A stretch of DNA of 64,000 nucleotides from Escherichia coli. Lineage in GTDB: Bacteria > Pseudomonadota > Gammaproteobacteria > Enterobacterales > Enterobacteriaceae. Shown piece by piece: positions 3,170 through 48,192 of the stretch. Within the stretch, counting starts at the first letter, position 1, and every line of letters begins with the position of its first letter. The position numbers were made by a program, and so were the translations under genes. The notes under the pieces are model-generated. The model was not told the DNA's origin. It saw only the letters and a program-made list of their open reading frames with translations, and made no database searches. The stretch lies in assembly GCF_003018255.1 (NCBI RefSeq), contig NZ_CP027440.1. One strand, given 5' to 3'.

Positions 3170-4936
3170 ATGAATAATTCTATTAACCATAAATTTCATC
3201 ACATTAGCCGGGCTGAATACCAGGAATTGTTAGCCGTTTCCCGTGGAGACGCTGTTGCCGATTATATTATTGATAATGTCTCTATTCTCGACCTGATCAA
3301 TGGCGGAGAAATTTCCGGCCCAATTGTGATTAAAGGACGTTACATTGCCGGTGTTGGCGCAGAATACGCTGATGCTCCGGCTTTGCAGCGGATTGATGCC
3401 CGCGGCGCAACGGCGGTGCCAGGGTTTATTGATGCTCACCTGCATATTGAATCCAGCATGATGACGCCGGTCACCTTTGAAACTGCTACCCTGCCGCGCG
3501 GCCTGACGACCGTTATTTGCGACCCTCATGAAATCGTCAACGTGATGGGCGAAGCCGGTTTCGCCTGGTTTGCCCGCTGTGCCGAACAGGCAAGGCAAAA
3601 CCAATACTTGCAGGTCAGCTCTTGCGTACCCGCCCTGGAAGGCTGCGATGTTAACGGTGCCAGTTTTACCCTTGAACAGATGCTCGCCTGGCGGGACCAT
3701 CCGCAGGTTACCGGCCTTGCAGAAATGATGGACTACCCTGGCGTAATTAGCGGGCAGAATGCACTGCTCGATAAACTGGATGCATTTCGCCACCTGACGC
3801 TGGACGGTCACTGCCCGGGTTTGGGTGGTAAAGAACTTAACGCCTATATTGCTGCGGGTATTGAAAACTGCCACGAAAGTTATCAGCTGGAAGAAGGACG
3901 CCGGAAATTACAACTCGGCATGTCGTTGATGATCCGCGAAGGGTCCGCTGCCCGCAATCTCAACGCGCTGGCACCGTTGATCAACGAATTTAACAGCCCG
4001 CAATGCATGCTCTGTACCGATGACCGTAACCCGTGGGAAATCGCCCATGAAGGACACATCGATGCCTTAATTCGCCGCCTGATCGAACAACACAATGTAC
4101 CGCTGCATGTGGCATATCGCGTAGCCAGCTGGTCGACGGCACGCCACTTTGGTCTGAATCACCTCGGCTTACTGGCACCCGGCAAGCAGGCCGATATCGT
4201 CCTGTTGAGCGATGCGCGTAAGGTCACGGTGCAGCAGGTACTGGTGAAAGGCGAGCCGATCGATGCACAAACCTTACAGGCGGAAGAGTCGGCGAGACTG
4301 GCACAATCCGCCCCGCCATATGGCAATACCATTGATCGCCAGCCAGTTTCCGCCAGCGACTTTGCCCTGCAATTTACCCCCGGAAAACGCTATCGCGTTA
4401 TTGAGGTAATCCATAACGAACTGATCACGCACTCCCGCTCCAGCGTCTACAGCGAAAACGGTTTTGATCGCGATGATGTGTGCTTTATTGCCGTTCTTGA
4501 GCGTTACGGACAACGACTGGCTCCGGCCTGTGGTTTGCTCGGCGGCTTTGGCCTGAATGAAGGTGCGCTGGCTGCGACGGTCAGCCATGACAGCCATAAT
4601 ATTGTAGTGATCGGTCGTAGCGCAGAAGAGATGGCGCTGGCGGTCAATCAGGTGATTCAGGATGGCGGCGGGCTGTGCGTGGTCCGTAACGGCCAGGTAC
4701 AAAGTCATCTACCGTTGCCCATTGCCGGGCTAATGAGCACCGACACGGCGCAGTCACTGGCGGAGCAAATTGACACCTTGAAAGCCGCCGCCCGTGAATG
4801 CGGTCCGTTACCGGATGAGCCGTTTATTCAGATGGCGTTTCTTTCCCTGCCAGTGATCCCCGCGCTGAAACTAACCAGTCAGGGGCTGTTTGATGGTGAG
4901 AAGTTTGCCTTCACTACGCTGGAAGTCACGGAATAA
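3170..4936 (+). CDS. ade: Adenine deaminase, 588 aa
   Basis: ORF 3170..4936; metal-dependent amidohydrolase motif ([12 protein letters not shown]); divergent from adeQ across an AT-rich intergenic region. Confidence 0.9.
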
Positions 4937-4964
4937 TAAAAAAAAGCCCGGCGTCATGCCGGGC
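4936..4964 (-). terminator. Rho-independent terminator hairpin after uhpT (GCCCGGC-GTCAT-GCCGGGC with a flanking A/T run)
   Basis: 7-bp GC stem at 4946-4952 / 4958-4964; A-run at 4936-4945 gives a U-run on the minus-strand transcript. Confidence 0.6.
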
Positions 4965-4982
4965 AAAAGTCACCAGTTAAGT

Positions 4983-6374
4983 TTATGCCACTGTCAACTG
5001 CTGAATTTTTTTCTCGCGGCGGATTTTGCGTTCTTCCATCACCGCCACTATCGCCATCAGGCAGATACAACCAATCGCGGCGATATCCAGCGCGGCGAAG
5101 GTGCCTGCCCAGCCGGTAAGGCCAAATACCGGCGTCCCATCGGCAATCATTCCCAGACCTAACTTGGCAAAGCTGTCACCAATCAGGTAAGCGAAGGTGC
5201 CTTTAATACCATCGGCAGCGCCAATCGCTTTTTTAGGTACAAAGCCAACAGCAGCCACACCAATCAACAATTGCGGGCCAAAGACCAGGAAACCCAACGC
5301 AAAGAGAGAAGCCAGGTAGATATATTCGTTGCTGGCGTGTTGATACACACCGAGCGTGGCGATAATCAGCGCCAGCGCGATACAGGCCACCAGGCCACGG
5401 CGACCGTTCGCCAGGTCAGAGAGCCAGCCCCACAGCAGCGTACCGACCAGCGCACCAGCTTCAAACAGCGTAAAGCCCTGAATCGCCACCGCTTTAGAGA
5501 GTTTCAGTTCCTGGAACGCATACACGGTTGACCACTGGTCGATACCAATACGCACCACATAGAGGAAAATGTTGGCGAAGCACAGCAGCCAGATCACTTT
5601 GTTTTTCAGCACATACTCAACAAAGATCTGCCACTTGGTCATATCGGTAGATTCTGTCTCTTTGTCCTCTTCGCTGATCTCCTCGCCGAACAGCTCTTCA
5701 GCTTTGCCGAGGCCATAAGATTCCGGGGAGTCGCTGCCGTAACGCAGGCCGATAAAACCGACAATCAGCGCGATAATCGACGGGAAAATAAACATGCCGA
5801 TGACATGACCATCGAACAGGTAATTTGCGCCGAACAGCGCCACACCTGCTGCGCCTGCACCACCAAGGTTGTGAGAAATGTTCCAGAAACCGAGGAATGT
5901 CCCGCGTTTACGACGCGGCGTCCATTTGGTGATGGTGGAGTAACTGCACGAACCGCCGGTACTCTGGAAAAAGCCGCTCAAGGCGTAGAAGGCAATCATC
6001 AGGAACAGGCTAACCGAGCCGCTGCCCATACTGGCACTGAAGCCCAGCATACAAATGGCGGACAGAATCAGCATGAACGGCAGGAATTGTTTGGTGTTTT
6101 TGCCGTCGGCGTAGTAAGAAACCAGCGTTTTACCCACGCCATAAGTGATGGAGAAGCCCAGGCCGATCATCCCCAGCTGCGTCATGCTCAACCCGTAGGT
6201 CGAGATCATGTCGTTCTGCGCGATGTTAAAGTTCTTGCGAATCAGGTACATCGTAAGGTAGCCGATAAAGACCACCAGGTAGGATTGCATGAACGGTTTG
6301 AACCACATTTTGCGCCGCACTTCGAGCGGAAGGTCCAGGGTCGGCTTGCGAACCTGGTTTAGGAAAGCCAGCAT
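4983..6374 (-). CDS. uhpT: Hexose-6-phosphate:phosphate antiporter UhpT, 463 aa
   Basis: ORF 4983..6374; MFS organophosphate antiporter sequence ([33 protein letters not shown]...). Confidence 0.95.
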
Positions 6375-6571
6375 GGGTTACTCCTGATTTCCCTTCATAC
6401 TTCAAGCCGCAGGTGCCTTAGCTGCACGCATTCCTCCCGGTCACATAGTTCACTATGCTCCCGGGACTCACGCGTTTGCTGCGTTCCTGCAACTTGAATT
6501 ATTTTGGGAAAGAATTAATGAATGATGGCATTGTAAAAATCAGCAGCAAATCAGGCCTGAGATAGCGTCCA

Positions 6572-6603
6572 GGCAAAACCTGGAAAATTTCTTAGTTTTG
6601 CCG
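6572..6603. promoter_or_regulatory. Perfect 8-bp inverted repeat GGCAAAAC-N16-GTTTTGCC upstream of uhpT; candidate UhpA-binding element
   Basis: Read directly from sequence in the uhpC-uhpT intergenic region; functional assignment is inference. Confidence 0.4.
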
Positions 6604-6629
6604 GATATGAAGTGAAAAGGTGAGATGCA

Positions 6630-7949
6630 TCACGCTTCGCGCGGTGTCTGGGCGTTCAAAAAGGGCAGTAACAGCAGTGCGGAAACCCCGGCGGCAATGG
6701 CGATAACCACAAAAAATCCGCTCCAGTGCCAGGTATCGAGCACTTTCGCCAGCGGCCAACCAGCAAGCGACGCCCCCAGATAAGCAAACAAGCCGACAAA
6801 CCCCGTCGCCGCCCCTGCCGCCTCTTTGTGGGAACATTCTGCCGCCGCCATGCCGATTAACATCTGCGGGCCAAAGACAAAAAAACCAATGGTGAAGAAG
6901 CAGGTTGCCTGCATCACGTAGCTGGCAAATGGCATCAGCCACAGCGAGCCGACTGAAAGCAAAATTCCGGCGGCGAAAATCAAATTCATCGGCCCGCGGT
7001 TGCCGTTAAACAATTTGTCCGAGCCCCAACCCGCTACCAGCGCACCGATAAATCCACCCAGTTCAAACATCGTCACTGCCGTATTCGCCGTGACCAGATC
7101 GACGCCCAGCGTCTCGGACATATACAAATTGCCCCAGTCGTTGATTGCCGCCCGGACCACATAGACCAGCACATAGCAAAACGAAAGCAGCCAGATATAC
7201 GGATTCAGTAACACATATTTGGTGAGGATCTCTTTACGCGTCAGCCCTGCCCCTTCTTGTTGTTGAGCTATCTCCAGCGCGTCGTGCCGCCATTCACCAA
7301 CCGCCGGTAAACCTAACGCCTGCGGGCGATCGCGCAGCCGCCAGCAGAGAAAAATCCCCACGACTATCGCCATACAACCCGCAATCATCATCCCGGCACG
7401 CCAGCCGTAATGCAGCGCGCTCGCTGCCATCACAATGGGAATGAGTGCGCCGCCGACGTTATGCGCCGTGTTCCATAATGCCCACCAACCGCCGCGCTCG
7501 GTACGAGAATACCAGGCGGTTAACAGACGCGCACACACCGGTGAACCCCAGCCCTGGAAAAAGGCGTTCAACACCCAAAGCACGGCAAACGCCCATAGCG
7601 ACGTCGAGAAGCCAAACAGAATGTTGATAATGCCCGTGGCAATAAGCCCTATCCCCATAAAATAACGGGCATTTGAGCGATCGCTGACAATGCCGGAGAC
7701 AAACTTCGACACGCCGTAGGTAATGTAAAACAGGGTCGCTAACAGGCCAATATCGCTACGGCTGAGCACGCCGTTAGCAAGGATTTCTGGTACGGCGGCG
7801 TTAAAACTTTTACGCGTGAAGTAAAACAGCGCGTAACCCAGCCAGATGGTCAGCAGAATATGCCGACGCCAGTAGCGATAGCGGGCATCAATTTCATGTT
7901 TATCAGTCAGTAATGGCGCATCGGCAGGCGCTTTCAGAAACGGCAACAT
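6630..7949 (-). CDS. uhpC: Glucose-6-phosphate sensor/MFS protein UhpC, 439 aa
   Basis: ORF 6630..7952 (MMLPFL...); second Met taken as start. Confidence 0.9.
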   Translation of the reverse strand: MLPFLKAPADAPLLTDKHEIDARYRYWRRHILLTIWLGYALFYFTRKSFNAAVPEILANGVLSRSDIGLLATLFYITYGVSKFVSGIVSDRSNARYFMGIGLIATGIINILFGFSTSLWAFAVLWVLNAFFQGWGSPVCARLLTAWYSRTERGGWWALWNTAHNVGGALIPIVMAASALHYGWRAGMMIAGCMAIVVGIFLCWRLRDRPQALGLPAVGEWRHDALEIAQQQEGAGLTRKEILTKYVLLNPYIWLLSFCYVLVYVVRAAINDWGNLYMSETLGVDLVTANTAVTMFELGGFIGALVAGWGSDKLFNGNRGPMNLIFAAGILLSVGSLWLMPFASYVMQATCFFTIGFFVFGPQMLIGMAAAECSHKEAAGAATGFVGLFAYLGASLAGWPLAKVLDTWHWSGFFVVIAIAAGVSALLLLPFLNAQTPREA

Positions 7950-7958
7950 CATCGAACC

Positions 7959-9464
7959 TTAGACATAACGTTGAGGTAGAGAAACGCTGACACGCGTGCC
8001 GTGCAGACAGGAAATGTGTAATGTGCCACCCAGCGCCGTTACGCGCTCGCGCATTCCGGTAAGGCCAAAACCGTGTTGCCCGGAATCTGGCGGTAAACCG
8101 CTGCCATCGTCTTCAATCACCAGCATTAACCGCTCATCATGCTGCCAGCCTTGCAGCGTGACCGCGCTGGCATCGGCATGTTTCACAATGTTGTTCAACC
8201 CTTCCTGGCAGACGCGAAATAGCGTCACGCGCTGGTTTTCGCTTAACGCTGATTCATCGATTCGCCATTCGAGATGACTGACAATGCCGCGCCCTTCCAG
8301 CTCCATTTCCCGCATCAGTGAGCGGATGGCCTGCTCCAGGGTGAGATCATCCAGCTGGCGCGGACGTAACCGCCCTAACAAGCGGCGCACCGCGTCGTAA
8401 ACGCCCAGCGATAGTTGTTCGATGAGCTGCCCGCTCTGTTTCACGCTGGCGTTATCCGCCGCGAGCCGCTGGACAATGCCCGCTTGAGTTCGAATAGCAG
8501 TAATGGTCTGACCGATATCATCGTGCAGCTCACGTGCCACATCACGGCGCACGCTCTCTTCGGTTTCCAGCAACCGTTCAGCGAGATGCTGATTGCGCGC
8601 CAGTTCCTTTTGCAGCGACTGGTTAAGTTCACGCAACCGCTGGATGCCTGCGCCCAGTAACAACCCTGTCAGACTTTGCACCAGCAGCGAGAGCAATAAA
8701 TCCACCGGATGATCGCGCCAGGTTTGACTGGCGATCAGCGCGATGGCGTTCATCAACGTCGCAATTAGCGCCCCTTGCCAGCCATAGTGCCAGGCCAGCG
8801 CGATAATCGGCAGCGCCAGGCAGAATGGCGTAAAGCGCGACAGTTCGTCCGGCAATCCCAACTGGAGCCAGAGACTGATAACAAACAGCAGCAAGTACCA
8901 GACCAGATGCCGCCCACGCCAGTTGATCGGTTGAGAAACTAACGACGGGCCGAGCGGCAGCCAGGTGTTATTGGCGAGATAGTGCCAGAACACCAGACAT
9001 ATCGGGGCCAGCGTCAGGCCGCCAGTTAAAGTCAGCAACAGCGCATTCCACGACTCTTTGCCGTGCCAAAGCCAGGGCAGCGACTGCAACAACGCCGCCG
9101 CCGTTAATGCCGCCCCTTGTAGCAGCAAGGTGCGCCAGTCACGTTGATGGCGATAGCGCGAGATCAGCGCCACGGGCAGTAACGTCAGTAAACTACCGAT
9201 CATCAATAAGAAGAAATGGGTTAAACCGACCGCCTGCGTTAACCAGTAAATCAGCAGCCACTCCGCGCCCAGCAACACCGGCCAGTATCCGCGCGGGCAT
9301 TGCAGCATTAGCCCCAGACGCAGACCAAACGGAAATAACAGCACCGCCATATCAGGGCGCTCAACCAGGTGCAGGCTGATACTCCACAGGCAAAACCATG
9401 CGGCAGAGAAGATAAAAAAGCAGGCAATAACGGTAATTAAGCGGGAGAACAACGTCTTCATCAC
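7959..9464 (-). CDS. uhpB: Sensor histidine kinase UhpB
   Basis: ORF 7959..9464; N-terminal membrane domain plus HisKA_3/HATPase C-terminus; start overlaps uhpA stop by 4 nt (ATGA). Confidence 0.9.
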
Positions 9465-13014: not shown

Positions 13015-13242
13015 TTTAGCGTGTGGGTTGGTGTCGGATGCGATGCTGACGCATCTTATCCGCCCTACCATCCCTCCCGGCAACATTTATTGCCGCTTTT
13101 GTTTACATATTCTGCCGCTAAACAATTCCCCATTCCTGGCGTATATCTGGCTAACATTTATCAATGTGATAGATTCCTCTCCCGCATTTATGGGAATGCG
13201 TAGTGACTTATTCTAATTATTTTTATAAAAGCATCCGTGATA

Positions 13243-14427
13243 ATGAAAAGGCATAGAAACGTCAATTTGTTATTGATGTTGGTATTACTCGTGGCCGTCG
13301 GTCAGATGGCGCAAACCATTTATATTCCAGCCATTGCCGATATGGCGCGCGATCTCAACGTCCGTGAAGGGGCGGTGCAGAGCGTAATGGGCGCTTATCT
13401 GCTGACTTACGGTGTCTCACAGCTGTTTTATGGCCCAATTTCCGACCGTGTGGGTCGCCGACCGGTGATCCTCGTCGGAATGTCCATTTTTATGCTGGCA
13501 ACGCTAGTCGCGGTCACGACCTCCAGTTTGACGGTATTGATTGCCGCCAGCGCGATGCAGGGCATGGGCACCGGCGTTGGCGGCGTAATGGCGCGTACTT
13601 TGCCGCGTGATTTATATGAACGGACACAGTTGCGCCATGCTAACAGCCTGTTAAACATGGGGATTCTTGTCAGTCCGTTGCTCGCACCGCTAATCGGCGG
13701 TCTGCTGGATACGATGTGGAACTGGCGCGCCTGTTATCTCTTTTTGTTGGTTCTTTGTGCCGGTGTGACCTTCAGTATGGCCCGCTGGATGCCGGAAACG
13801 CGTCCGGTCGACGCACCGCGCACGCGCCTGCTTACCAGTTATAAAACGCTTTTCGGTAACGGCGGTTTTAACTGTTATTTGCTGATGCTGATTGGCGGTC
13901 TGGCCGGGATTGCCGCCTTTGAAGCCTGCTCCGGCGTGCTGATGGGCGCGGTGTTAGGGTTGAGCAGTATGACGGTCAGTATTTTGTTTATTCTGCCGAT
14001 TCCGGCAGCGTTTTTTGGCGCATGGTTTGCCGGACGTCCCAATAAACGCTTCTCCACGTTAATGTGGCAGTCGGTTATCTGCTGCCTGCTGGCTGGCTTG
14101 CTGATGTGGATCCCCGACTGGTTTGGCGTGATGAATGTCTGGACGCTGCTCGTTCCCGCCGCGCTGTTCTTTTTCGGTGCCGGGATGCTGTTTCCGCTGG
14201 CGACCAGCGGCGCGATGGAGCCGTTCCCCTTCCTGGCGGGCACGGCTGGCGCGCTGGTCGGCGGTCTGCAAAACATTGGTTCCGGCGTGCTGGCGTCGCT
14301 CTCTGCGATGTTGCCGCAAACCGGTCAGGGCAGCCTGGGGTTGTTGATGACCTTAATGGGATTGTTGATCGTGCTGTGCTGGCTACCGCTGGCAACGCGG
14401 ATGTCGCATCAGGGGCAGCCCGTTTAA
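13243..14427 (+). CDS. emrD: Multidrug efflux MFS transporter EmrD, 394 aa
   Basis: ORF 13237..14427 (track start is GTG); ATG at 13243 gives MKRHRNVNLLLMLVLLVAVGQ... Confidence 0.9.
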   Translation: MKRHRNVNLLLMLVLLVAVGQMAQTIYIPAIADMARDLNVREGAVQSVMGAYLLTYGVSQLFYGPISDRVGRRPVILVGMSIFMLATLVAVTTSSLTVLIAASAMQGMGTGVGGVMARTLPRDLYERTQLRHANSLLNMGILVSPLLAPLIGGLLDTMWNWRACYLFLLVLCAGVTFSMARWMPETRPVDAPRTRLLTSYKTLFGNGGFNCYLLMLIGGLAGIAAFEACSGVLMGAVLGLSSMTVSILFILPIPAAFFGAWFAGRPNKRFSTLMWQSVICCLLAGLLMWIPDWFGVMNVWTLLVPAALFFFGAGMLFPLATSGAMEPFPFLAGTAGALVGGLQNIGSGVLASLSAMLPQTGQGSLGLLMTLMGLLIVLCWLPLATRMSHQGQPV

Positions 14428-14434
14428 GCGCACA

Positions 14435-14932
14435 TCACCGCAGCATCGTCATCAGCTCCATGGGAGAACGATGCTGCTTTATCAGATCACGCATCACCCG
14501 CATATGCGGTGCGGAGTAAGAATAAAACGCCTGATAGCCCGCACATAGCATGCTGTCTGGCGTCTCCTCCCGAGCGTGCGGACACAGCCGATGCCAGTCG
14601 CACGCCTGGCAGTCACGGCGCGATTGCGGGTTTTCGCTGCCACACCATTTTTGTAAGGTGGCGTCAAAAAGCTCAATCGAAATACGACTGATATCTGCCC
14701 GCACCCAACACTCAAACAGGGCAATTAAAAATTTCCCCCACAGCTCTGCTGTCACCGAAGCGGCCGTCAGATCGCCCCGGTCATCAAATTCAAGATAGGG
14801 AATGAGCTGTACGGAGCGGATGCCCCGCTGTTTGAAATTGTGATAAAAATCGGCAGGTTGCAAAGCATCCTTATACTCTACAACCAGTTTATGCCTGTCC
14901 TCTTCAGCATCAATGACCTGACTTCCTGTCAT
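14435..14932 (-). CDS. yidF: Uncharacterised protein YidF, 165 aa
   Basis: ORF 14435..14932; 4-nt overlap with yidG. Confidence 0.8.
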   Translation of the reverse strand: MTGSQVIDAEEDRHKLVVEYKDALQPADFYHNFKQRGIRSVQLIPYLEFDDRGDLTAASVTAELWGKFLIALFECWVRADISRISIELFDATLQKWCGSENPQSRRDCQACDWHRLCPHAREETPDSMLCAGYQAFYSYSAPHMRVMRDLIKQHRSPMELMTMLR

Positions 14933-15291
14933 GCGACTCTCTCAATAAATACGATAAGTTGATGTATATGCGTTACAGCAAACAGTATTGCGAGAGATAA
15001 CACCGCGAGGGAGATCAAAAATTTGTCACGGACTACGTGAAATTGGGAAAAATCGCTATTCGTGACATCCATTAAATTGCGATTACGGGTGTAGTGCCAG
15101 AGGATCAGCGCCACGATGGCGAGGATGCCAATCGAAATCCAGAATAACATGCCCGCCTGGTGCCAGTTGTGTTTGATAGCCAACGCCATCAACGCGCCGT
15201 AGCCCAGCATGGTACGAAACCACGCCAGTGATGTGCGCTCCGGCTGCAGTCCTGGGTCGGCAATGCGTCTGGCTTTGCGGCTATCCGGCAT
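14929..15291 (-). CDS. yidG: Inner membrane protein YidG, 120 aa
   Basis: ORF 14929..15291; hydrophobic small protein. Confidence 0.8.
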   Translation of the reverse strand: MPDSRKARRIADPGLQPERTSLAWFRTMLGYGALMALAIKHNWHQAGMLFWISIGILAIVALILWHYTRNRNLMDVTNSDFSQFHVVRDKFLISLAVLSLAILFAVTHIHQLIVFIERVA

Positions 15292-15628
15292 ACAACACCA
15301 GTCCCATAACGATCACCGCCACGACCATCAATATTAAGCTGATGATTAATAAGCTGTTGGTGTAGGGCAGGTCCTCTTTCAGACGCATCGCTTTTTCATT
15401 GCGTAACCAGCGCAAGTAGCCATACATCGCTAACCCGCCGGAAAACAGACACAACAACAACGCCAGCAGTTCGCGAATGACGGGCGTGGCGAAATCTGGC
15501 GCAAGTTGGTCAAGCCCAACCCCCGCCGCCAGAAATCCTAGTGCGGTACGGATCCACGCCAGAAAAGTACGCTCATTAGCCAGCGAGAAGCGGTAATCGG
15601 GCGCTTCTCCGAGGCGGGAAATTTTCAT
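15281..15628 (-). CDS. yidH: Inner membrane protein YidH (DUF202), 115 aa
   Basis: ORF 15281..15688; start assigned to the internal ATG at 15626-15628 (MKISRLGEAPDYRF...). Confidence 0.75.
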   Translation of the reverse strand: MKISRLGEAPDYRFSLANERTFLAWIRTALGFLAAGVGLDQLAPDFATPVIRELLALLLCLFSGGLAMYGYLRWLRNEKAMRLKEDLPYTNSLLIISLILMVVAVIVMGLVLYAG

Positions 15629-15687
15629 TGTTGCTCCTTGTAAACTGTTCCTCGCCGAAAAATTAGGCCAGGAACAGCAATAATGCA

Positions 15688-17181
15688 TCAGAACTTCTGT
15701 TTTTTCTCTTCCACCTTCACCCCTTGTGTCGGTAGGCCGGTGTCATAGTCGCGTACTACTGGCGAATAGCCATCTTGTGGGCGTGGACGAAATGCCCCCA
15801 TCCAGCGCGGCTGTGCATCTTTACGCCACGGACGCAGGCTCCATTGGTAACTGCGGAACGGATCGCGAATTTTGTCCATGTAATCCAATAAGGCGTCATG
15901 CATTTTGCGGCGAACGTCGGCAAAACGGATATCATCGATCAGGTTATGCATTTCATTTGGGTCATTACGGCGATCGTAAAGTTCATCACTGGTGAAGAGG
16001 TTGAGTACCAGTTTAAAGTCATCCGTCACCCAGCAACGCACCGGAATAAAACCGCCAAAGCTGTCATGCTCAATCTCGTAGCGGTTAAATTCCACCATTA
16101 CGCCGCGTGGCTCTTTCACGGCAAGGATATTTTCCCCCGGCAGAATCTCTGGTTTTTCAATATCTGCCAGCGCCATCATTGTCGGCAGTAAGTCAATATG
16201 ACTGACTGGCGTATCGACCTGTCGCCGCTCCCCTTGCGGCGAACGGATGATCAGCGGAATGCGGGTGATGTCGTCATACATCGCCGCCCCTTTACTGATC
16301 AGCTTATGTGCGCCCATCATTTCACCATGATCGGAGGTATAAATGACCCACGTATTTTCACGTTGCTCTGGCGTTAAGGCATTGATGACACGTCCGATTT
16401 GGTCATCAACAAAGTCATTGCAGGCAAAATAGAGCGGATGGTGATAAAGCCCGTCATCACCGACTGGCGATGGCATCGCCTGCGCCCATAAGCGGTGATG
16501 TTCCGGTTTGTTCGCCAGGTCATCCTGTGATTTCTCGCCAAGTTCGTAGTAAAAATCAGCGTATTTCTCTAAATACTCCACCGGACAGGTGAACGGGTGA
16601 TGCGGCTCATCATACGAAACCACCATCAGGAAAGGTTCGTCGGCGCGCGCGGGCTGTTGCAGAAAATCTACCGCCCGATTGCTGATGCGGTGCGCCCAGG
16701 TGAAGGTTTCGTCGATATGGTTCGCCTGTAAATCCTCAACGCTGTTTAGGCCATTGCGCCACAGGCTGATCTCTTTTTCCGTCAGTTCGCTAAGGTAGTT
16801 CGCCCCATCGAACCAGTAATCAGCGTCCCACTCCGGCGGACACTCGCCAGTGCCGAAATAGTCATGACCGTCGAGATGCCATTTGCCAATGTAACAGGTG
16901 TGATAGCCCGCATCCTTAAAGTAGCGCCCCATGGTGGAAATGTTTTTACCTGGCGCGACGTTGTTGGTCCACGGGCCGGACTGGTTAGCGTAGATACCGG
17001 TAAACAGCCCGGCGCGCGCTGGTGTACAAACCGGTGAACAGGTATAGGCGGAATTAAAGCGAATACTTTCCGCCGCCAGACTATCAATATTTTGCGTATT
17101 CAGCGGCTTACCGCTATAGCAACCGACCATATTGGTGGCCTGGGTATCGGTCATGATGAACAGAAAATTGGGGCGTTTCAT
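15688..17181 (-). CDS. yidJ: Putative sulfatase YidJ, 497 aa
   Basis: ORF 15688..17181; sulfatase signature region (CSPVCTPARAGLFTG). Confidence 0.9.
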   Translation of the reverse strand: MKRPNFLFIMTDTQATNMVGCYSGKPLNTQNIDSLAAESIRFNSAYTCSPVCTPARAGLFTGIYANQSGPWTNNVAPGKNISTMGRYFKDAGYHTCYIGKWHLDGHDYFGTGECPPEWDADYWFDGANYLSELTEKEISLWRNGLNSVEDLQANHIDETFTWAHRISNRAVDFLQQPARADEPFLMVVSYDEPHHPFTCPVEYLEKYADFYYELGEKSQDDLANKPEHHRLWAQAMPSPVGDDGLYHHPLYFACNDFVDDQIGRVINALTPEQRENTWVIYTSDHGEMMGAHKLISKGAAMYDDITRIPLIIRSPQGERRQVDTPVSHIDLLPTMMALADIEKPEILPGENILAVKEPRGVMVEFNRYEIEHDSFGGFIPVRCWVTDDFKLVLNLFTSDELYDRRNDPNEMHNLIDDIRFADVRRKMHDALLDYMDKIRDPFRSYQWSLRPWRKDAQPRWMGAFRPRPQDGYSPVVRDYDTGLPTQGVKVEEKKQKF

Positions 17182-18893
17182 AGGCTATCCTTCGCGTCGG
17201 GAGTAAAGGTTACGGCTGGGTCGTGACGATGCCGCCAGCTATCAAAAATCAGGTAGACAATCACTACGGCGGCAATGAAATAACTGATCATCGCTAACCA
17301 GCGCGTACCGTAGCCGCCGAATTCAGCCAGCCCGGCATAGACGCCAATCATCGCGAACAGGATGCCCATTGACGCGATCTTGACGTTTTTCCACGGTTTC
17401 ATGTCCACCGCAAACGCATCTTTGAAGGTGAACGGCGTGGCGCGCGGTTTGATAAAACCGATCACCAGCATCACGACCACGTTGATGCAGAACGTACAGG
17501 CCAGCACATAGAGGAAATGGAAGTCGAACTTCACCAGATAGTTGATGGTGATGTAGCTGATTATGCCAATCCCCATCGCCACTTTTGCCGCCAGCGCCGG
17601 GATGCGCGGGAAGAAAAAGCCCATAATGATGATGGTAACCAGCGGCACGTTGTAAATGCCGTTGAGCTGTTTCATCCAGCTATACAGCCCCTGCGGCGCG
17701 TTGGCGATCCACGGCGCTACCAGCACCGAAACGATGGCGATAAAGAAACCAAATTTGCGCCCGACGGTGACCAGCTGCTGCGGCTCGGCATTCTGGTTAA
17801 TGATGCGCCGGTAAATACCCATACTGAATAACGTACTGGCGCTATTCAGAAAGCCGTTGAAGGTACTGATCACCGCACCAAATAACACCGCGCCGAAGAA
17901 ACCCACCAGTGGCACTGGCAGAACGTTATTGACCAGCGTCGGGTAGGCCATGTCGGCTTTCGGTAGATCCTGATACAGATGAAACGCAATCAACCCTGGC
18001 AGCACCAGTACCAGCGGGTCGAGCATTTTCAGCACCGCCGTTAACAGCGCCCCCTTTTGCCCTTCCGCCAGGCTTTTTGACGCCAGCGTGCGTTGCACGA
18101 TGCCCTGATTTGTACACCAGTAAAAGGTGTTCACCAGAATCAAACCGGTAAATGCCGCGCCAATCGGCAAGGGATCGGTCGGGCCGCCGACTGAGTTTAA
18201 TTTCTCGGCGTGAACGGTGGTGAGTTGCTCAATGCCCTGCATAAAGCTGCCCTTGCCCATCGCGATCAGGCCAAATACCGGCACCATCAACCCGCCAATA
18301 ACCAGCCCAATACCGTTAATGGAGTCCGCCACTGCCATTGCGCGCAGTCCGCCGATCACCGCATACAAAATTCCCGCCAGACCAAGCAAAATAACCAGTA
18401 ACCAGATAGCCGCACCATCGGAAAGTTGTAGCGACTCACCCACATGAAACAGGCTGTTGAGCGCCAACGCGCCGGAATAGAGAACAATCGGCAGAAAGCA
18501 GACGCCGGTGGCAATGAGGAAGCAGAAGTCGATGATAATACGCGTCGTTTTATCATAACGTTCCTCCAGAAAATCGGGGATGGTGGCAATGCTGCGCTTC
18601 AGATAGCGCGGTAAAAAGATTAGCGCGAGGAAGATCAGCGTCACTGCAGAGGTGACTTCCCAGCCCATCACCGACATGCCACTTTTGTAGGCCTGCCCAG
18701 AAAGGCCGACCAGTTGTTCCGTGGAAAGGTTGGTTAGCATTAACGAAGCGGCAATAACCGGCGCTTTTAGTGAACGTCCGGCAAGAAAATAGCCTTGTTG
18801 CGATCCGGTATCTGTTTTACGGACCTTCCACCAGGTGATGACCGCTACCAGCAGCGTAAAACCGACAAAACTCAAGATTTGTAACGAATTCAT
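17178..18893 (-). CDS. yidK: Sodium:solute symporter family transporter YidK, 571 aa
   Basis: ORF 17178..18893; polytopic membrane protein; 4-nt overlap with yidJ. Confidence 0.9.
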   Translation of the reverse strand: MNSLQILSFVGFTLLVAVITWWKVRKTDTGSQQGYFLAGRSLKAPVIAASLMLTNLSTEQLVGLSGQAYKSGMSVMGWEVTSAVTLIFLALIFLPRYLKRSIATIPDFLEERYDKTTRIIIDFCFLIATGVCFLPIVLYSGALALNSLFHVGESLQLSDGAAIWLLVILLGLAGILYAVIGGLRAMAVADSINGIGLVIGGLMVPVFGLIAMGKGSFMQGIEQLTTVHAEKLNSVGGPTDPLPIGAAFTGLILVNTFYWCTNQGIVQRTLASKSLAEGQKGALLTAVLKMLDPLVLVLPGLIAFHLYQDLPKADMAYPTLVNNVLPVPLVGFFGAVLFGAVISTFNGFLNSASTLFSMGIYRRIINQNAEPQQLVTVGRKFGFFIAIVSVLVAPWIANAPQGLYSWMKQLNGIYNVPLVTIIIMGFFFPRIPALAAKVAMGIGIISYITINYLVKFDFHFLYVLACTFCINVVVMLVIGFIKPRATPFTFKDAFAVDMKPWKNVKIASMGILFAMIGVYAGLAEFGGYGTRWLAMISYFIAAVVIVYLIFDSWRHRHDPAVTFTPDAKDSL

Positions 18894-47016: not shown

Positions 47017-48192
47017 ATGTCCCGCTTTTTGATTTGTAGTTTTGCCCTGGTTTTACTTTATCCCGCAGGGATTGATATGTACCTCGTTGGTTTACCGCGC
47101 ATCGCCGCCGATCTCAATGCCAGCGAAGCGCAGTTGCATATTGCGTTCTCCGTTTATCTGGCGGGGATGGCGGCTGCGATGTTATTTGCCGGTAAAGTGG
47201 CCGATCGTTCAGGGAGAAAGCCTGTCGCCATACCCGGCGCGGCGCTATTTATTATCGCCTCGGTGTTCTGTTCACTGGCTGAAACCAGCGCGTTATTTCT
47301 TGCAGGGCGATTTCTACAGGGACTGGGCGCGGGCTGTTGTTACGTAGTGGCGTTCGCCATTTTGCGCGACACGCTGGATGATCGACGTCGGGCTAAAGTG
47401 CTGTCGTTACTCAACGGCATTACCTGCATCATTCCGGTGTTAGCGCCGGTGCTCGGACACCTGATTATGCTTAAATTCCCTTGGCAGAGTCTGTTCTGGA
47501 CGATGGCAACGATGGGCATCGCGGTACTGATGTTGTCTTTGTTTATTTTAAAAGAAACGCGCCCTGCGGCCCCCACAACTTCGGACAAACCACGAGAAAA
47601 TAGCGAGTCACTGCTTAATCGGTTTTTCCTCAGCCGTGTTGTTATCACCACCCTCAGCGTTTCGGTGATCCTCACCTTCGTCAACACGTCGCCAGTATTG
47701 CTGATGGAAATCATGGGTTTTGAGCGCGGAGAATACGCCACCATTATGGCGTTGACCGCTGGCGTCAGCATGACCGTTTCATTCTCCACGCCGTTTGCGC
47801 TGGGAATTTTTAAGCCACGTACGTTGATGATCACCTCACAGGTGTTATTCCTGGCGGCGGGGATCACCCTTGCCGTTTCACCTTCCCATGCGGTTTCGCT
47901 GTTTGGTATCACGCTGATTTGCGCCGGTTTCTCGGTAGGTTTTGGTGTGGCGATGAGTCAGGCGTTAGGGCCGTTTTCATTACGCGCGGGCGTAGCCAGC
48001 TCGACCTTAGGTATTGCGCAAGTTTGCGGTTCGTCACTGTGGATTTGGCTGGCGGCGGTGGTTGGTATCGGCGCATGGAATATGCTGATCGGGATTCTGA
48101 TTGCCTGTAGCATAGTGAGCCTGTTGCTGATTATGTTCGTCGCGCCTGGACGCCCGGTTGCCGCTCATGAAGAAATCCATCACCACGCTTGA
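47017..48192 (+). CDS. mdtL: Multidrug resistance MFS transporter MdtL, 391 aa
   Basis: ORF 47017..48192. Confidence 0.9.

Follow-up and report, generated by a model that had tools for sequence, protein, structure and literature searches.

In the Escherichia coli DNA analysed here (a 64,000-nt stretch of contig NZ_CP027440.1, hereafter the window), yidH and yidJ are almost adjacent, and the locus raises the question of what has become of yidI, the gene that lies between them in K-12. The original prediction, made by reading the window without database searches, was that yidI is missing from a junction of 59 bp. Both flanking genes belong to a minus-strand cluster next to emrD, and the features of the cluster and of the junction are as follows:

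17178-18893, minus strand: yidK, a solute:sodium symporter gene and the first gene of the co-directional cluster (NCBIfam NF007790, E = 1.7e-256).
15688-17181, minus strand: yidJ, encoding a Cys-type (CTPAR motif) sulfatase-family protein (Pfam Sulfatase, E = 1.4e-71).
15629-15687: the yidJ-yidH intercistronic spacer, 59 bp; its K-12 counterpart is 603 bp long and includes yidI.
15640-15687: the allele-specific segment, 48 bp; K-12 homology stops after 15639 and returns at 15688.
15645-15677, minus strand: a stem-loop with 8 + 3 bp around a C-C mismatch and a 9-nt loop.
15634-15639, minus strand: AAGGAG, the Shine-Dalgarno sequence of yidH, which precedes the ATG by 5 nt and is also present in the K-12 allele.
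15281-15628, minus strand: yidH, encoding a 115-aa DUF202 membrane protein (Pfam DUF202, E = 2.8e-19).
14929-15291, minus strand: yidG, encoding a 120-aa DUF202 membrane protein.
14435-14932, minus strand: yidF, with which the cluster ends; its 165-aa product is a short form of an anaerobic sulfatase-maturase-like radical SAM/SPASM protein.
13237-14427, plus strand: emrD, just upstream.

On the minus strand, the yidH start codon occupies 15626-15628 and the yidJ stop codon (TGA) occupies 15688-15690. The predicted distance of 59 bp was thus confirmed by both the coordinates of the open reading frames (ORFs) and the window sequence. The claim that the junction lacks a plus-strand ORF of about 150 aa also held, since the ORF list contains none of at least 30 aa within 15629-15687. 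An AAGGAG-like motif is conserved in yidJ-yidH spacers across species. We did observe that an ATG overlapping the yidJ stop codon by one base (TGATG, 15686-15690, minus strand) opens a longer yidH ORF of 135 aa (15281-15688), with 20 extra codons free of stops. An extended YidH of 135 aa was rejected because manual translation of the spacers revealed that neither E. coli HS-02 nor Citrobacter amalonaticus keeps the frame open. Given that 20 stop-free codons would be expected by chance in about 38% of cases, by our estimate, the extension is probably fortuitous.

Junctions elsewhere in the cluster are overlaps of 4-11 nt: yidK overlaps the start of yidJ by 4 nt, yidH overlaps yidG by 11 nt, and yidG overlaps yidF by 4 nt. 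The 59-nt yidJ-yidH spacer is therefore the sole gap. The YidH protein carries a RefSeq accession, WP_000703959.1, that is common to K-12 and E. coli DETEC-S792. When compared with TIGR03942, YidF gave an E value of 2.7e-21 over model positions 160-245 of 363 only (the best stretch), a match far below the cut-off. Because only this central part of the model was matched, E. coli YidF lacks the radical-SAM N-terminal core. The orthologue is full-length (370 aa) in Citrobacter (for example, 7289-8401 of locus L008) and in many other genera, and short forms are found in Salmonella arizonae (176 aa) and Escherichia albertii (159 aa). In Klebsiella and Superficieibacter the yidF tblastn match begins right after yidG, which suggests a short form there too. 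Elsewhere in the window, at 47077-48039 on the plus strand, there is a second MFS transporter gene with a weak EmrD-like tblastn match (27% identity).

To compare the junction with that of K-12, we used strain DH10B, in which yidI (450 bp, 149 aa, opposite strand) lies inside the 603-bp yidH-yidJ spacer. The position given for yidI in K-12 was thus correct, as seen in both the DH10B annotation and the alignment. The alignment, which had been proposed as the check on the prediction, also indicated that K-12 does not have the tight junction. Window and K-12 are identical over the yidH start and Shine-Dalgarno sequence (CATTGTTGCTCCTT, 15626-15639), and they align again from precisely the stop codon of yidJ onwards (TCAGAAC, window position 15688). 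No similarity is left between these points: the window has 48 bp of its own (15640-15687), and K-12 has 592 bp, consisting of the divergent yidH-yidI intergenic region, yidI itself, and a hairpin with a perfect 11-bp stem between yidI and yidJ. Shuffle-controlled local alignment of the 48-bp core with the K-12 spacer gave no significant similarity, the best match being the 8-mer GCATTATT.

We then searched the 64-kb window for yidI at any other position. With the K-12-specific 592 bp as query, blastn returned only chance matches of at most 44 nt (E of 0.11 or more), and tblastn, for which the queries were the YidI of K-12 and eight divergent members of its family, returned only short fragments, with a best E value of 0.098. 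No protein homologous to YidI (PF27700) was found to be encoded in the window. On the evidence of these tblastn and blastn searches, the prediction that yidI is missing stands for the 64-kb window. As a strain-specific or simple deletion, however, the absence does not stand, given the same junction in 1,412 genomes and the unrelated 48 bp at the site.

A positive control for simple deletion was provided by E. coli HH45. Its 85-bp spacer (2470-2554 of locus L082) keeps the K-12 'TTGCAATTTC' end next to yidH as well as the K-12 terminator hairpin next to yidJ, and it is thus a true internal deletion of the gene. The window allele, unlike that of HH45, has no K-12-specific sequence at either end, and we rejected a simple internal deletion of yidI as its origin. 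A mobile-element origin of the yidI segment (transposon, IS or MITE) was likewise rejected: at the boundaries of the segment in K-12 (3341 and 3932 of locus L001) we found no target-site duplication, direct repeats or terminal inverted repeats, and thus nothing indicates transposition.

How common the window junction is was determined in 5,426 complete E. coli genomes, using a 76-bp junction query that had to be matched over at least 80% of its length. The tight junction was present in 1,412 of them (26%); the identity was at least 99% in 1,037, 95-99% in 374, and 91% in one. Of the 5,426 genomes, 3,717 contain yidI, with a median of one place per positive genome. It is chromosomal in every case, with no plasmid copy, and every one of the yidI DNA matches listed is the yidI gene; in E. 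coli, yidI is found at the yidH-yidJ locus only. Both flanks of the junction were found in 5,112 genomes, corresponding to the 1,412 with the tight junction and about 3,700 with yidI; about 300 genomes have other alleles. Because these counts are complementary, at most about 17 genomes with the tight junction could also hold yidI. E. coli DETEC-S792 (NZ_CP116067.1) matches the window at 100% identity across 701 bp, and RefSeq places its yidH beside yidJ. APEC O1 (NC_008563.1) also carries the tight junction, with yidH followed by yidJ and no yidI in RefSeq. The window junction is therefore an ordinary natural polymorphism of an accessory gene, with many earlier annotations, and very probably the window simply carries a common, naturally segregating yidI-less allele, with an unrelated 48-bp spacer and a probable single-operon layout.

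Among the other alleles, the internal deletion of the HH45 type was seen in one genome, and a deletion associated with an IS200/IS605 element, extending from yidI to beyond yidK, occurs in about 290. In SC516 (4330-6280 of locus L003) and MB06233 (locus L004), this IS allele retains 123 nt from the start of the K-12-specific segment, of which about 19 nt are the beginning of yidI. The element, of the IS200/IS605 type, has an intact TnpB/InsQ gene and a frameshifted tnpA pseudogene. yidJ and yidK are missing along with the remainder of yidI, and the first intact gene beyond them encodes a 6-phospho-alpha-glucosidase. Since matches to the tight allele and to the IS allele end at the same base, 15639, we considered a breakpoint common to both. 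This was rejected, as the IS allele continues with K-12-type sequence for 123 nt, and because that sequence includes the start of yidI, the IS allele derives from a yidI-positive allele.

We asked next how yidI is distributed outside E. coli. The YidI family comprises about 110 clusters at 90% identity, and all clusters named for an organism belong to the Enterobacteriaceae. Precomputed annotations assign it to PF27700 (uncharacterised inner membrane protein YidI); K-12 YidI matched no model in our local copies of Pfam and NCBIfam. A yidI between yidJ and yidH is confined to the following lineages. Within Escherichia, it lies there in strains E69 and E1V33 and in E. whittamii (94-95% aa identity) and in E. 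albertii (84-85%). It is found at the same site in Phytobacter massiliensis (69% aa identity), Citrobacter youngae (73%) and a Klebsiella huaxiensis-like lineage (67%). The yidI of Salmonella enterica subsp. arizonae (64%; 6542-7017 of locus L053) is also at this site and is split into ORFs of 107 and 51 aa; it is probably a pseudogene, decaying in this lineage.

Two further copies lie apart from yidF-yidK. In Yokenella regensburgei (5001-5447 of locus L076), yidI adjoins yidE-ibpB-ibpA, in the same chromosomal neighbourhood and with yidF-yidK absent, and in Leclercia sp. S52 (5001-5450 of locus L075) it adjoins a PemK/MazE (mazEF-like) toxin-antitoxin pair. Because yidI occurs outside the sulfatase cluster in Yokenella and Leclercia, it behaves as an independent unit. 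We conclude that yidI is a patchy, dispensable gene restricted to the Enterobacteriaceae. YidI has been named among strain-variable membrane protein genes (PMC10304320); mentions of yidI and yidJ in the literature were otherwise incidental.

To place the yidI-less layout in a wider context, we performed a YidJ-anchored scan with one genome per species, which yielded 69 loci, and located six neighbouring proteins in each by tblastn. In about 40 species of Enterobacterales, yidK-yidJ-yidH-yidG, usually with yidF, are contiguous on one strand with no yidI. These include Citrobacter werkmanii, C. braakii, C. amalonaticus and C. sedlakii, Klebsiella oxytoca and K. spallanzanii, and members of Kluyvera, Trabulsiella, Pluralibacter, Atlantibacter, Pseudocitrobacter, Superficieibacter, Buttiauxella, Rahnella, Limnobaculum, Pantoea and Erwinia. 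The distance between yidJ and yidH in these species is 10-433 bp. Judged by gene order in the species scanned, the contiguous layout of the window is the norm across the order.

One of these spacers resembles that of the window. In C. amalonaticus, the first 10 nt past the stop codon of yidJ (TGCATTATTG) are common with the window and in register, and the 60-bp spacer also contains the window motif CCTGGCCT and a hairpin of the same geometry, followed by a Shine-Dalgarno sequence. This spacer gave the best score among about 45 comparisons, with p ~0.003 per comparison; the likeness is short and, after correction for the ~45 comparisons, suggestive only. Other spacers contain palindromes of their own. 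Several in Citrobacter (loci L008, L009, L012, L058 and L011) have a REP-like GCCGGATAAGGCG palindrome, and those of Pluralibacter, Dryocola, Cedecea and one Enterobacteriaceae genome (L025) have CCCTCTCCC...GGGAGAGGG units, with up to three in tandem (loci L020 and L024-L026). The yidJ-yidH spacer thus seems to be a preferred landing place for elements resembling repeated palindromes.

The hairpin that had been noticed in the short junction was recovered by folding. Its stem is formed by CTGTTCCT (15645-15652) pairing with AGGAACAG (15670-15677), with a GCC/GGC extension across the C-C mismatch. The mRNA strand of the spacer has a minimum free energy of -21.8 kcal/mol (z = -3.4), and only one of 200 dinucleotide shuffles folds as well. 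On the mRNA, the 3' end of the hairpin lies 5 nt upstream of the yidH Shine-Dalgarno sequence AAGGAG, and therefore the yidH ribosome-binding site is not occluded.

We considered three known classes for this element (an intrinsic terminator, a REP element and an RNA family in Rfam), and rejected each because the terminator scan, the copy number and the Rfam search were all negative. A Rho-independent terminator would have a GC-rich stem, a loop of 3-8 nt and a U-rich tract immediately after it; the consensus scan made no call here, the loop is 9 nt, and the tail, UUUACAAGG, contains no U-tract. A search of 15300-16000 on both strands with the covariance models of Rfam 15 gave no match at E of 1 or below. 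In a search for REP/BIME-like recurrence, the hairpin was found at one place per genome in all 1,412 genomes, and no second copy turned up in the window when as many as 6 substitutions were tolerated; because it is single copy, it is not a REP element. Nearly all of the 1,412 E. coli copies have the same stem sequence, and covariation within E. coli thus lends the hairpin no support. In other species, most yidI-less spacers of at least 44 nt fold into a stable hairpin of unrelated sequence. Because species with spacers of 10-32 nt have no hairpin, a hairpin is not required for the cluster.

How E. coli came by the tight allele is less certain than its presence. The account that we tentatively prefer, and regard as plausible rather than probable, is that the allele arose once and relatively recently in E. 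coli, when a short spacer of foreign or ancestral type, coming from a relative without yidI, replaced the yidI segment, and that it then spread between phylogroups by homologous recombination. All of the Escherichia outgroups sampled (E. albertii, E. whittamii and E1V33) are yidI-positive, and therefore parsimony within the genus favours an ancestral yidI and a later tight allele; the direction of this change in E. coli is an inference. There is hardly any variation in the tight spacer (1,037 genomes at 99% or more, 374 at 95-99%), and that of MS6198, the one sequenced member of the 95-99% class, differs from the window by a single base in the loop. Over about 190 bp, which cover the spacer with 47 nt of yidJ on one side and 83 nt of yidH on the other, the window is identical to APEC O1, yet the last 500 nt of yidJ differ by 4.2%, and the window flanks are nearer to K-12 (98.2-98.8%) than to APEC O1 (95.8-97.7%), indicating that flank haplotypes do not track the junction allele. 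The 3' end of yidJ (15688-16187) falls into two divergent haplotypes, one in K-12, the window, MS6198 and E. albertii and the other in APEC O1, E69, E1V33 and E. whittamii, and across Escherichia both types of flank are found with both junction states. This absence of correlation between the yidJ haplotypes and the presence of yidI points to recombination within ~50-90 nt of the junction. The resemblance to the C. amalonaticus spacer would fit a replacement as well. However, we found no donor with an identical spacer. The coding flanks by the junction have no donor-like tract of SNPs; such tracts, which would point to interspecies import, were sought there. The low diversity of the spacer could also be explained by purifying selection on the hairpin and the ribosome-binding site.

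An older origin, which we consider possible but rather unlikely, would have both junctions predate E. coli and persist in the Enterobacteriaceae through selection or incomplete sorting, with the window retaining the older operon form. A contrast between presence and absence of yidI is seen in Citrobacter, where C. youngae is yidI-positive and C. werkmanii is yidI-less with flanks that are 93.6% identical, and the same contrast occurs within Klebsiella (the huaxiensis-like lineage versus K. oxytoca and K. spallanzanii) and in S. arizonae. The order-wide prevalence of the yidI-less layout agrees with it, and the 10 nt that C. amalonaticus has in common, in register, suggest descent of the tight spacer. 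The very low diversity of that spacer in E. coli and the yidI-positive Escherichia outgroups nevertheless argue against it, and tight spacers across genera are otherwise unrelated in sequence and length, as independent losses predict. That this strain alone recently lost yidI by deletion, starting from an ancestor like K-12, is highly improbable. While yidI is at this site in K-12, O157:H7, E. albertii and cryptic Escherichia lineages, and real deletions of yidI do exist (HH45 and the IS200/IS605 allele), the junction is shared by 1,412 genomes, including the distantly related APEC O1, and its 48 bp have no counterpart in the 592 bp of K-12, both ends of which are kept in HH45. The chance that assembly or sequencing collapsed the region is negligible, as 1,412 genomes, each finished independently, have the identical junction and the flanking genes are intact and in frame.

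Whatever its origin, the tight allele places yidK, yidJ, yidH, yidG and yidF head-to-tail, and most likely they are co-transcribed as one operon. A single yidKJHGF operon is the most likely arrangement on several indirect grounds: the genes are on one strand, they overlap by 4-11 nt at the other junctions, no terminator-like site was called, and their order is contiguous in ~40 species. In neither allele did a simple promoter scan detect a sigma-70 site, and the scan thus does not tell the one-operon model from a model with two units. The single transcript would encode the sulfatase YidJ, the transporter YidK, two DUF202 proteins and the maturase-like YidF. Stem-loops and REP elements between cistrons can stabilise the upstream mRNA in operons, as in malE-malF. 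By analogy, the stem-loop in the spacer may act as an intercistronic mRNA element, a barrier to 3'-exonucleases that would protect the yidKJ message. Alternatively, it might be a weak attenuator that sets the ratio of yidKJ to yidHGF, rather than a full terminator. Where the allele is of the K-12 type, yidI, which is convergent, and the hairpin with the 11-bp stem, probably a bidirectional terminator, would presumably split the cluster into yidKJ and yidHGF units.

A bolder reading would make the junction a long-lived, trans-specific regulatory switch, in which the presence or absence of a convergent yidI cassette, itself without hallmarks of a mobile element, would be maintained in Escherichia, Citrobacter, Klebsiella and Salmonella because it toggles the cluster between one operon with a tuning hairpin and separately controlled yidKJ and yidHGF units, the tight E. 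coli allele having spread across phylogroups by short recombination tracts under selection. We think this improbable. The practical consequences of the common, segregating allele are modest. For annotators, the absence of yidI at this junction is genuine and not an error. K-12 is not a universal reference here, since yidKJHGF is contiguous in ~26% of the E. coli genomes that are finished and in most related genera. Studies of YidJ, YidK or YidG/YidH should expect the transcriptional wiring to differ between K-12-type and tight-junction strains. Beyond such bookkeeping, the finding carries little weight.

Compared with the K-12 yidH-yidI-yidJ region (b3676-b3678), the window has flanking genes that are 98-99% identical, with the same Shine-Dalgarno sequence, start codon and yidJ stop codon, and the wider neighbourhood, tisB-emrD-yidF-yidG-yidH ... 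yidJ-yidK, is also the same. The difference lies at the junction, where K-12 has 592 bp that are absent from the window and the window has 48 unrelated bp with a hairpin of their own. In APEC O1 and DETEC-S792, the 76-bp junction is 100% identical to that of the window and only the haplotype of flanking SNPs differs, being K-12-like in the window but not in APEC O1. The C. amalonaticus cluster has the same gene order and strand as the window, with a different sequence in the stem of its hairpin. Contiguous clusters elsewhere often have a yidF of 370 aa, compared with 165 aa in E. coli, and the spacers of other species contain REP-like or other palindromes, or no hairpin, in place of the hairpin of the window. 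That hairpin resembles textbook intercistronic stem-loops in that it is stable, lies just past a stop codon within a co-directional cluster, and is followed by no U-tract. It differs from REP elements in being present as a single copy per genome, and thus it is not a member of that family.
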